Positions 43,580 to 44,598 of a DNA stretch of 64,000 bases are shown one piece after another (the stretch's first letter is position 1; every line of letters starts with the position of its first letter). The position numbers were made by a program, and so were the translations under genes. This DNA is from Escherichia phage dhabil: sequence record MN850621.1. One strand, written 5' to 3'. The notes under the pieces were generated by a model that searched no databases, was not told where the DNA came from, and saw nothing but the letters and a program-made list of their open reading frames with translations.

Positions 43580-43858
43580 TTAAAGTGCTTTTTTCAAAAT
43601 ATCAAAGTGCTTGGTGGCGATGTAAACGGTTTTCATTACAGAAGATTCTTGAGCCGGGGAAATAACAATGCTCCCACCGTCTTTTTTAGCATGGTAACCG
43701 TCGCCCAGATAAACAGTACCTTTAAGTTCATCACCATTAAGACCGATAACCGGTTTACCTTCACGGCCTTTGTTTAGGGCTATAACTTCACTCATAACAC
43801 TGGCTTCAGTGATAGGAGCCACTTTTTGAGATTTACTAAATTCTTGATAAGTTTTCAT
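43580..43858 (-). CDS. capsid internal protein (IPI/IPII-like)
   Basis: N-terminus MKTYQEFSKS… is the T4 internal-protein targeting sequence; 92 aa. Confidence 0.55.
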   Translation of the reverse strand: MKTYQEFSKSQKVAPITEASVMSEVIALNKGREGKPVIGLNGDELKGTVYLGDGYHAKKDGGSIVISPAQESSVMKTVYIATKHFDILKKAL

Positions 43859-43880
43859 TTTGATTTCCATTTGGTTAGTT

Positions 43881-43926
43881 TGTTTTTGATAGGCCTATAG
43901 TATCATCACTAAAGCCCTTTGTAAAA
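43881..43926 (-). promoter_or_regulatory. early promoter cassette (variant) upstream of internal-protein gene
   Basis: TTTTAC -35; core TTGATAGGCCTATAGTATCA. Confidence 0.5.
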
Positions 43927-43936
43927 CATTTTTAAA

Positions 43937-44146
43937 TTATTTTAGCCATGAAGAATTTTCAGAGACCCAGCTATCTATATCTGATTGCGGGCCAAAGAAG
44001 TAGGCAACCCCATTAGATAACTCTCCCGAAAGCCAATTTATACCTTTCAGGCTTTCTTTAAATTCTTCAGGAGTACAAGAAACCTCTATTGCCACCGAAG
44101 AGGCTGACTCCATTGCTTCTGTTAAGAATTCTTTGTATGATTTCAC
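43937..44146 (-). CDS. capsid internal protein-like small protein
   Basis: N-terminus [11 protein letters not shown], variant of MKTYQEF targeting sequence; 69 aa. Confidence 0.5.
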
Positions 44147-44598
44147 TTTAAATCCTCGGCCCAGTCGAGCTTCAAGGGTTCTTTATATTCTCTATCTAAA
44201 ACGACAGGAATCTGGACATCTCCACTAAAGGTAAGAGGTCCTACATTATAAGACAATGTGATATGAGGGGTGTAATCATCGAAATCGTGCGTAGCACCTA
44301 AGGTACGAGCATACTGATGGCGGCATTTAAGATACTCTGAATCGAGAACCAGTACCAAGACAGGAGAATCACCATGTTTCCACACTTCAAGATGTCCTGA
44401 CGAAGCAACTTCGAAACTTCCGGATGCAACAGTGTATGGAACGTTGACTCTTGAATAGCAGATTGTAGAATGGAATTTTTCACGAGGAACTGGATTAGGA
44501 ACCTTTAAAGTGCGCTGAAGATTTTCCAGCGCATCTAAAGTCAATTCAGAGAATTTTGCAGCAACGTATAGACCTTGAGCAAAATCTTCGGTTTTCAT
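44143..44598 (-). CDS. 57B: 2H phosphoesterase at gene 57B position (Acb1-like)
   Basis: Two H-x-[ST]-x motifs (KFHSTICY and TPHITLSY) typical of 2H phosphoesterases; position upstream of 57A/gene 1 as T4 57B. Confidence 0.5.

Follow-up and report, generated by a model that had tools for sequence, protein, structure and literature searches.

What does the ipI-57B segment of a T4-type phage genome hold against the defences of the host, and is it inherited as one piece? The question is raised by positions 43,580 to 44,598 of a 64,000-nucleotide stretch of Escherichia phage dhabil (record MN850621.1; the whole stretch is called the window below), in which an earlier note, made from the letters alone, saw a compact anti-defence island of capsid-targeted internal proteins next to a 2H phosphoesterase. 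Here, we find it very probable that the locus combines one conserved enzyme directed against CBASS, the antiphage signalling system based on cyclic oligonucleotides, with a variable set of proteins that would be packaged in the head and injected. Four genes are at the centre of this reading (a slash marks a predicted cleavage site throughout):

44143..44598, minus strand: acb1, ortholog of T4 gene 57B, 151 residues (Pfam PF23474, PDB 7T26/7T27, alignment to T4 57B)
43937..44146, minus strand: 69-residue gene with the targeting sequence MKSYKEF and a GTG start (phrog_23867), candidate injected internal protein
43580..43858, minus strand: ipI ortholog, 92 residues, starting with MKTYQEF (Pfam PF11634, PDB 2JUB, alignment to T4 IpI)
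41480..42103, minus strand: 207-residue gene with the targeting sequence MKTYNEFLNE/SVLTE/A (phrog_2280), candidate large internal protein

The locus is the known ipI-57B segment of a T4-type (JS98-like, Dhakavirus) genome and is ordinary for this phage group. Over positions 41400-45600, the identity of the window to Escherichia phage dhaeg (Straboviridae, Tevenvirinae, Dhakavirus) is 99.9%; to JS98, IME08 and CLB_P2 it is 94-98%.

Results

By its sequence, the 151-residue protein is a clear ortholog of T4 gp57B, that is, of Acb1. It matches the Pfam family Acb1 (PF23474) over profile positions 1-144 of 144 (E=6.8e-59; 198.2 bits, where the cutoff is 27), the Acb1 structure from Erwinia phage FBB1 (PDB 7T26/7T27; E=3.1e-59) and T4 gp57B, with which it shares 85% identity. 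The earlier note had pointed to two H-x-T/S motifs, named Acb1 as the product of T4 57B and proposed an alignment as the check. The motifs are H43-S-T45 and H112-I-T114, the link between T4 57B and Acb1 is correct (Hobbs et al. 2022, PMC9117128), and the alignment to T4 57B bore out the conservation of the catalytic histidines and of all contact residues. In T4 Acb1 the HxT/HxT tetrad catalyses, the bases stack on Y12, W74, F107 and W147, and E141 reads the adenine (PMC9117128). The corresponding residues are all conserved here: H43, T45, H112 and T114 (T4 H44, T46, H113 and T115), the aromatics Y11, W73, F106 and W146, and the adenine-contacting E140. From the 85% identity and the full conservation of the key residues, we infer that the Acb1 of the window would degrade CBASS signals.

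Do the genes next to acb1 encode proteins that are directed to the head? The three N-termini MKTYQEF, MKSYKEF and MKTYNEF, which the earlier note had recognised as capsid targeting sequences, are indeed present at the 92-, 69- and 207-residue open reading frames (ORFs), all on the minus strand. When the whole window is translated in six frames, the pattern K[ST]YxEF is found three times and no more, always at residue 2 of these ORFs; shuffled sequences contained a mean of 0.065 occurrences (200 shuffles), which places the three motifs far above chance. A relaxed pattern added a single ORF of 127 residues (26890-27273, minus strand), which is weak and unconvincing: it begins MKFNDFVLSR, and the L/I-x-E cleavage motif does not follow. 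A scan of the rest of the dhaeg genome found no further targeting-sequence ORFs, and two Alt-like ADP-ribosyltransferases carry another type of N-terminus. The 92-, 69- and 207-residue proteins appear to be the full set of canonical targeting-sequence proteins of the phage.

The first 10 residues of T4 IPIII are enough for encapsidation; targeting depends most on residues 4 and 7 and processing by gp21 on residues 8 and 10, while the propeptide of IpI is longer, with 19 residues (PMC9026906). All three proteins of the window follow the pattern M-K-T/S-Y/F-x-E-F with its aromatic residue at position 4 and phenylalanine at position 7 (Tyr4 and Phe7 in 3/3). Leu8 and Glu10 are found in the 69- and 207-residue proteins; in the IpI ortholog the propeptide is of the longer IpI type. 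The gp21 motif L/I-x-E comes after the targeting residues in each of them, as LTE10/A in the 69-residue protein, ITE18/A in IpI, and LNE10/S and LTE15/A in the 207-residue protein; the Glu-Ala of the cleavage site is conserved in both uncharacterised families, those of the 69- and 207-residue proteins. In the dhaeg genome, outside the region that matches the window, both gp21 (the prohead protease) and gp22 (the scaffolding core) are annotated. Because the targeting residues fit the mutational map and gp21 and gp22 are present, there is a well-founded expectation that the three proteins would be packaged, processed and injected.

A separate likeness was seen between the N-terminus of T4 Acb1, MMEFKDFST, and the targeting sequence of T4 IpI, MKTFKEFTS (T4 stretch 12391-12411; window 44575-44598). 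We considered whether Acb1 itself carries a targeting sequence and rejected this for the phage of the window: MKTEDF has no aromatic residue at the equivalent of position 4, and L/I-x-E occurs nowhere in the protein. The likeness is probably not functional.

One of the two small proteins of the earlier note, which had not been recognised there, is IpI itself. As judged from sequence comparison, the 92-residue gene is the ipI ortholog: its product matches Pfam PF11634 (IPI_T4) over profile positions 1-75 of 76 (E=1.5e-26, 92.6 bits against a cutoff of 25) and the nuclear magnetic resonance structure of mature IPI* (PDB 2JUB; E=8.1e-23, where residue 20 of the query pairs with residue 2 of the chain), and it shares 57-59% identity with T4 IpI, including the conserved ITEA. 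Both the Pfam and the PDB match start within one residue of the predicted ITE/A site, and ITE18/A19 aligns with T4 ITE19/A20 and with the first residue of the mature-protein structure. Cleavage is predicted at this site, giving a propeptide MKTYQEFSKSQKVAPITE followed by A and a predicted mature IPI* of 74 residues with an isoelectric point (pI) of 9.0. The start is the second ATG, at 43858, four codons inside ORF 43580-43870; the first ATG, at 43870, was rejected, as JS98 has ACG there and dhaeg is annotated with the 92-residue form. After its injection, T4 IPI* blocks the type IV enzyme GmrS/GmrD (PMC3012670), and by this precedent the IpI of the window would block GmrSD-type type IV restriction.

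Is the 69-residue ORF a gene at all? Three features could mark it as a chance ORF or a decaying remnant rather than a functional packaged protein: it starts with GTG, it is missing from the annotations of dhaeg, JS98 and JS10, and its family is very small, with homologs in 28 phage records and, in an exhaustive profile search of 1.84 billion representatives, about four small-protein clusters, all of the 69-residue type and without a link to a known family. The comparison with other genera speaks against this. The protein matches phrog_23867 over its full length (E=1.8e-42), and the family keeps its length (68-70 residues in five phages from four genera, 66-74 in all members) at 53-77% identity. 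Substitutions fall mostly on the third codon position (14/5/34 at the first, second and third position against EcS1, 17/4/33 against Gravdalen), and this excess points to purifying selection on the protein. The motif MK(T/S)(Y/F)x(E/D)F(L/I)xE/AME, that is, the targeting sequence with its E/A site, is kept in all members.

The start of the gene is also well placed for translation. The GTG lies in a GTGA that holds the acb1 stop as well, with a good Shine-Dalgarno sequence, GAGGA, 6 nt upstream. Outside Dhakavirus the homologs start with ATG, usually with the same overlap; the 57B stop and the start of the homolog overlap by 4 nt in four of the five phages compared, and in CF1 an internal-protein gene intervenes. 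In Dhakavirus, Kagamiyamavirus, Winklervirus and Moonvirus, the homologs that were checked lie directly after 57B or in the run of internal-protein genes that follows. The AlphaFold (AF2) model is confident (predicted local distance difference test score, pLDDT, of 83), with a beta-alpha-beta-beta-alpha order that is generically ferredoxin-like in PDB; a Foldseek search of BFVD matched it to Ip6 of phage VR7, which is putatively an internal head protein (E=1.8e-3, template-modelling (TM) score 0.70). Judged by this conservation, the ORF is a real, conserved gene, and we regard a chance or decaying frame as highly improbable. The gene is confined to a handful of T4-like genera. No homolog was found in Tequatrovirus, and therefore the protein belongs to a family other than that of Bas37_0260, an McrBC inhibitor with a targeting sequence that is encoded at the ipI locus in a relative of T4 (preprint 10.1101/2025.11.20.689424). 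No Pfam model matched the 69- or the 207-residue protein, and NCBIfam gave no match for any of the four proteins.

In two Moonvirus phages (CF1, stretch 1184-2015; Merlin, 1495-1916), acb1 is followed by a chain of 2-3 targeting-sequence genes, each of which overlaps the preceding stop by 4 nt (ATGA). This arrangement points to translationally coupled internal-protein gene arrays.

The 207-residue protein matches phrog_2280 (E=2.9e-59) and has homologs in 143 phage records, from Dhakavirus and Mosigvirus-type coliphages to Enterobacter, Klebsiella, Kosakonia and Erwinia phages; among the homolog records listed, the gene is labelled 'hypothetical protein' or is unannotated. Residues E15-A16 are nearly invariant in the family. 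In the AF2 model, two helical domains flank a disordered linker rich in Ala, Lys and Pro, the length of which varies in homologs, and Foldseek found no match to it in PDB at E below 1. The gene has a promoter of its own, one of only six exact matches to this late-promoter sequence in the window:

42132..42139, minus strand: T4-type late promoter TATAAATA of the 207-residue gene, 28 nt upstream of its ATG

A hairpin followed by T6 (42141-42168), read from the sequence, directly precedes this promoter. In the coding sequence, short imperfect direct repeats of 25-nt units (41790-41880) encode the Ala/Lys/Pro-rich linker, and its length differs between homologs through insertions and deletions. 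We rejected the protein as a homolog of T4 IpIII, because both hhalign and BLASTP align residues 1-25 only.

What would such a protein do? Its predicted mature product is basic (pI 9.7) and, with about 21.5 kDa, close in size to IPIII* (~20 kDa), and its disordered linker resembles that of histone H1. These properties would suit a mainly structural or DNA-condensing protein, a stand-in for IpIII in core assembly and charge neutralisation rather than an anti-defence effector. Conservation of sequence and position over several genera, far wider than that of the small cassettes, would fit such a role, as would the late promoter and the slower head assembly of T4 IpIII mutants (PMC9026906). On the other hand, the gene is missing at the syntenic position in JS10, IME341, vB_EcoM_005 and fDHCT2 and is therefore dispensable, and T4 IPIII itself acts as a host-range factor that is needed in the host cytoplasm to infect ECOR17 (PMC9391042). 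We hold a mainly structural role to be possible and its assignment tentative. By analogy, a role as an injected inhibitor of first-line defence is plausible, at somewhat less than an even chance, with head assembly or DNA condensation as its main rival; the two roles are not mutually exclusive.

How do the internal-protein genes vary between phages? A 60-nt repeat (family D1) lies after the stop codon of each of the 69-residue gene, ipI and the 207-residue gene. Each copy contains TTTACA-N17-TACTAT with an upstream TG, and two of the three copies have a hairpin between the hexamers. In this they correspond to the promoter-early stem-loop (PeSL) cassettes reported from T4-type phages (Arbiol 2010, Comeau 2014). 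The copies in the window are:

43884..43943, minus strand: early-promoter/stem-loop element (PeSL type), copy 1, between the 69-residue gene and ipI (promoter scan 43925-43897)
43533..43592, minus strand: early-promoter/stem-loop element, copy 2, the D1 reference, between ipI and trna.4 (promoter scan 43574-43546)
41379..41438, minus strand: early-promoter element, copy 3, 60% identity, downstream of the 207-residue gene (promoter scan 41419-41392)

The hairpin of copy 2 has a folding energy of -13.4 kcal/mol (z=-2.3), and copy 3 is preceded by a hairpin terminator-like site at 41456-41477. The consensus for the PeSL of PST and T4 is TTTACW-N17-TAYWAT (PMC4122927).

Alignment of the window to JS98 shows where the exchange takes place. 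Identity is about 99% from the 3' end of acb1 through the 69-residue gene and the first element to the MKTYQEF codons, falls to background over the rest of the ipI gene and resumes exactly at the next element (43533..43592). The drop in identity is confined to the mature part of ipI, and the unit of exchange would thus be a single mature-protein segment. In JS98 and JS10 the slot is occupied by an unrelated targeting-sequence protein of 97 residues, and AnYang carries yet other internal proteins and lacks the 69-residue gene. The ipI allele of the window is 100% identical in dhaeg and CLB_P2 and 88% in Bp7; elsewhere identity is at most ~75% at the DNA level. On this comparative evidence, the ipI slot is an exchangeable cassette, and the exchange concerns a single coding segment for a mature protein rather than the block in its entirety.

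In the RefSeq records of JS98 (compared stretch 4039-4686) and JS10 (3728-4375), some 650 bp from trna.4 to 57B carry no annotated gene. This gap holds two intact targeting-sequence ORFs, those of the 97-residue protein and of the 69-residue gene.

Is the segment nevertheless a discrete island, with acb1 and the internal-protein genes inherited together as one mobile unit? The minus-strand order is e.8, the 207-residue ORF, tRNA-Arg/Asn/Met, trna.2, trna.3, trna.4, the 92-, 69- and 151-residue ORFs, 57A, gene 1, gene 3, a homing endonuclease and gene 2. Two of the flanking features are:

44598..44828, minus strand: gene 57A, tail-fibre assembly chaperone (Pfam GP57, E=4e-27; T4 gene order), the backbone neighbour of acb1
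42339-42571, minus strand: tRNA genes Arg-TCT, Asn-GTT and Met-CAT, the only three in the cluster

The adjacency of acb1, the 69-residue gene and ipI, the translational coupling of the 69-residue gene to acb1, and the presence 2.3 kb away of gp2, an injected protector of DNA ends against RecBCD, would all be expected of an island. However, T4, Moonvirus, Kagamiyamavirus and Winklervirus all have acb1, 57A and genes 1, 3 and 2 as a conserved backbone, with acb1, 57A, gene 1 and gene 3 kept in all genera examined. Scattered through the stretch are genes for housekeeping and structure (57A, dNMP kinase, gp3), the exchange breakpoints flank single internal-protein genes rather than the block, and the 207-residue gene is set apart from ipI by three tRNA genes and trna.2-4. 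We consider a co-inherited unit improbable. The description in the earlier note as a compact anti-defence island is fair as to content, in the sense of an anti-defence cluster; no evidence points to a co-mobile unit: acb1 is part of the backbone, and the internal-protein genes are individually exchangeable and turn over singly in the adjoining hyperplastic stretch.

The T4 order trna.2-trna.3-trna.4-ipI-57B-57A-1-3-2 is kept in the window, with two additions: the 69-residue gene between ipI and 57B, and the 207-residue gene between e.8 and the tRNA region. The T4 tRNA cluster has 8 tRNA genes and segB, compared with three tRNA genes here, and an Rfam scan of the region found nothing but these three. 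The non-coding stretch of about 200 nt after tRNA-Arg (42141-42338, minus strand) is a homolog of the T4 stable RNA rnaD, although no Rfam family covers it: the first ~60 nt are nearly identical to T4, a second block is also conserved, and it terminates in a GAAA-loop hairpin followed by T6. The counterpart of T4 rnaC is replaced in the window, and the 207-residue gene comes next.

Between gene 3 and gene 2 lies an ORF of 221 residues for an HNH-type homing endonuclease (46255-46920, minus strand; phrog_655, E=2e-55), which overlaps the start of gene 2 by 16 nt. It is missing in the otherwise 99.9%-identical dhaeg, so that the window cannot be dhaeg itself, and has ~92% identity to counterparts in other Dhakaviruses, such as QL01 and C6.

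Discussion

How would these genes act during infection? Acb1, as a metal-independent 2H phosphoesterase, would degrade the cyclic oligonucleotide signals of CBASS. During head assembly, the N-terminal 7-10 residues of the targeting-sequence proteins would bind the scaffolding core, and gp21 would then cut after the glutamate of L/I-x-E (LTE10/A, ITE18/A, and LNE10/S and/or LTE15/A). The mature proteins would remain with the DNA and enter the host cell together with it. There, mature IpI* would bind and block GmrSD-family type IV enzymes, which attack DNA with sugar-modified cytosine, and the acidic 59-residue and basic 21.5-kDa proteins would most likely counter further first-line defences, as T4 IPIII and Bas37_0260 suggest by analogy. 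Between infections, recombination at the targeting-sequence codons on the 5' side and at the repeated early-promoter/stem-loop element on the 3' side would swap the mature-protein coding part between phages.

Acb1 and IpI are the only ones of the four proteins with characterised anti-defence homologs. For the 69-residue protein, if it is packaged, inhibition of a first-line defence after injection would be the most likely role, for which analogy with other proteins of this class suggests about an even chance. That it is a new inhibitor, aimed at a first-line defence without a known phage counter-measure, seems to us rather doubtful. A candidate target may be a nuclease, of type IV or another kind, that recognises DNA with arabinosylated cytosine. 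The charge of the predicted mature product (59 residues, pI 4.1) hints at mimicry of nucleic acids, unlike the DNA association of the classical basic internal proteins.

Several observations weigh against a set of injected anti-defence proteins. Virion proteomics of Dhakavirus or JS98 was not found in the literature, so that the packaging of the three proteins is a prediction; in Petrov 2010 internal proteins are not discussed. The 69-residue protein is acidic, whereas the classical T4 internal proteins are basic, and fold searches with the models of the 69- and 207-residue proteins yielded no functional clue. An exact late promoter precedes the 207-residue gene only; ipI has an early-type promoter and the 69-residue gene none of its own, so that their late synthesis must come via read-through. 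This is apparently as in T4, where ipI too is without a dedicated exact late promoter. Finally, Dhakaviruses are predicted to carry arabinosylated 5-hydroxycytosine and not glucosyl-hydroxymethylcytosine (PMC13326640), and the enzyme targeted by the IpI of the window may therefore differ from that of T4. RB69, which bears arabinosylated 5-hydroxycytosine, has an IPI homolog (PMC13326640); thus, IpI is not tied to glucosyl-hydroxymethylcytosine.

The biology of Acb1 and IpI is already known from T4, and our findings mostly confirm it in Dhakavirus. The 69- and 207-residue proteins join the known class of internal proteins as new and under-annotated members, and the locus is a very clean example of cassette exchange between targeting-sequence codons and a promoter/stem-loop repeat. 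Other proteins of this locus have already been paired with restriction systems (IpI with GmrSD, Bas37_0260 with McrBC), which makes the 69- and 207-residue proteins reasonable candidates for host-range and anti-defence screens. Such screens bear on the choice or engineering of therapeutic coliphages.

Comparison with known systems

The closest correspondence is with T4 Acb1. The length agrees within one residue, the gene lies upstream of 57A in both phages, and the C-terminal lid sequence is also conserved. The differences are not of substance: the N-terminal 8 residues are MKTEDFAQ in the window, as against MMEFKDFST in T4, and the acb1 stop of the window overlaps with a further gene downstream, at its start, which is missing in T4.

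T4 IpI and the ortholog of the window share the slot between 57B and trna.4, a propeptide that ends in ITE/A (18 residues in the window, 19 in T4) and a basic mature protein (74 and 76 residues, respectively). The IpI of the window differs as a divergent allele, confined to dhaeg, CLB_P2 and Bp7. With T4 IpIII, the 207-residue protein has in common the 10-residue targeting-sequence pattern, a similar size and a basic charge, and a weak similarity extends to residue 25. However, the 207-residue gene lies between e.8 and the tRNA/rnaD region, whereas IpIII lies between denV and e. The two-domain helical product of the 207-residue gene, with its Ala/Lys/Pro-rich linker, has no detectable homology to IpIII past the N-terminus.

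The 69-residue protein is built like the cassettes of the Ip5-Ip14 type and Bas37_0260, with a small, unrelated mature domain behind the targeting sequence. As with the variable internal proteins of the T-even phages, its gene lies in the same hypervariable locus with an early-promoter/stem-loop element alongside; it differs from them in its translational coupling to acb1, in the absence of a promoter element of its own and in its acidic product, for which no sequence homolog of known function was found. The repeats themselves fit the PeSL consensus and stand beside variable ORFs, and one copy coincides with an exchange breakpoint. Here the promoter copies are predicted, and copy 3 (41379-41438) has lost its hairpin, in which it departs from the PeSL type. 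The layout PeSL-ipI-PeSL-trna.4 is the same in T4 and in the window.

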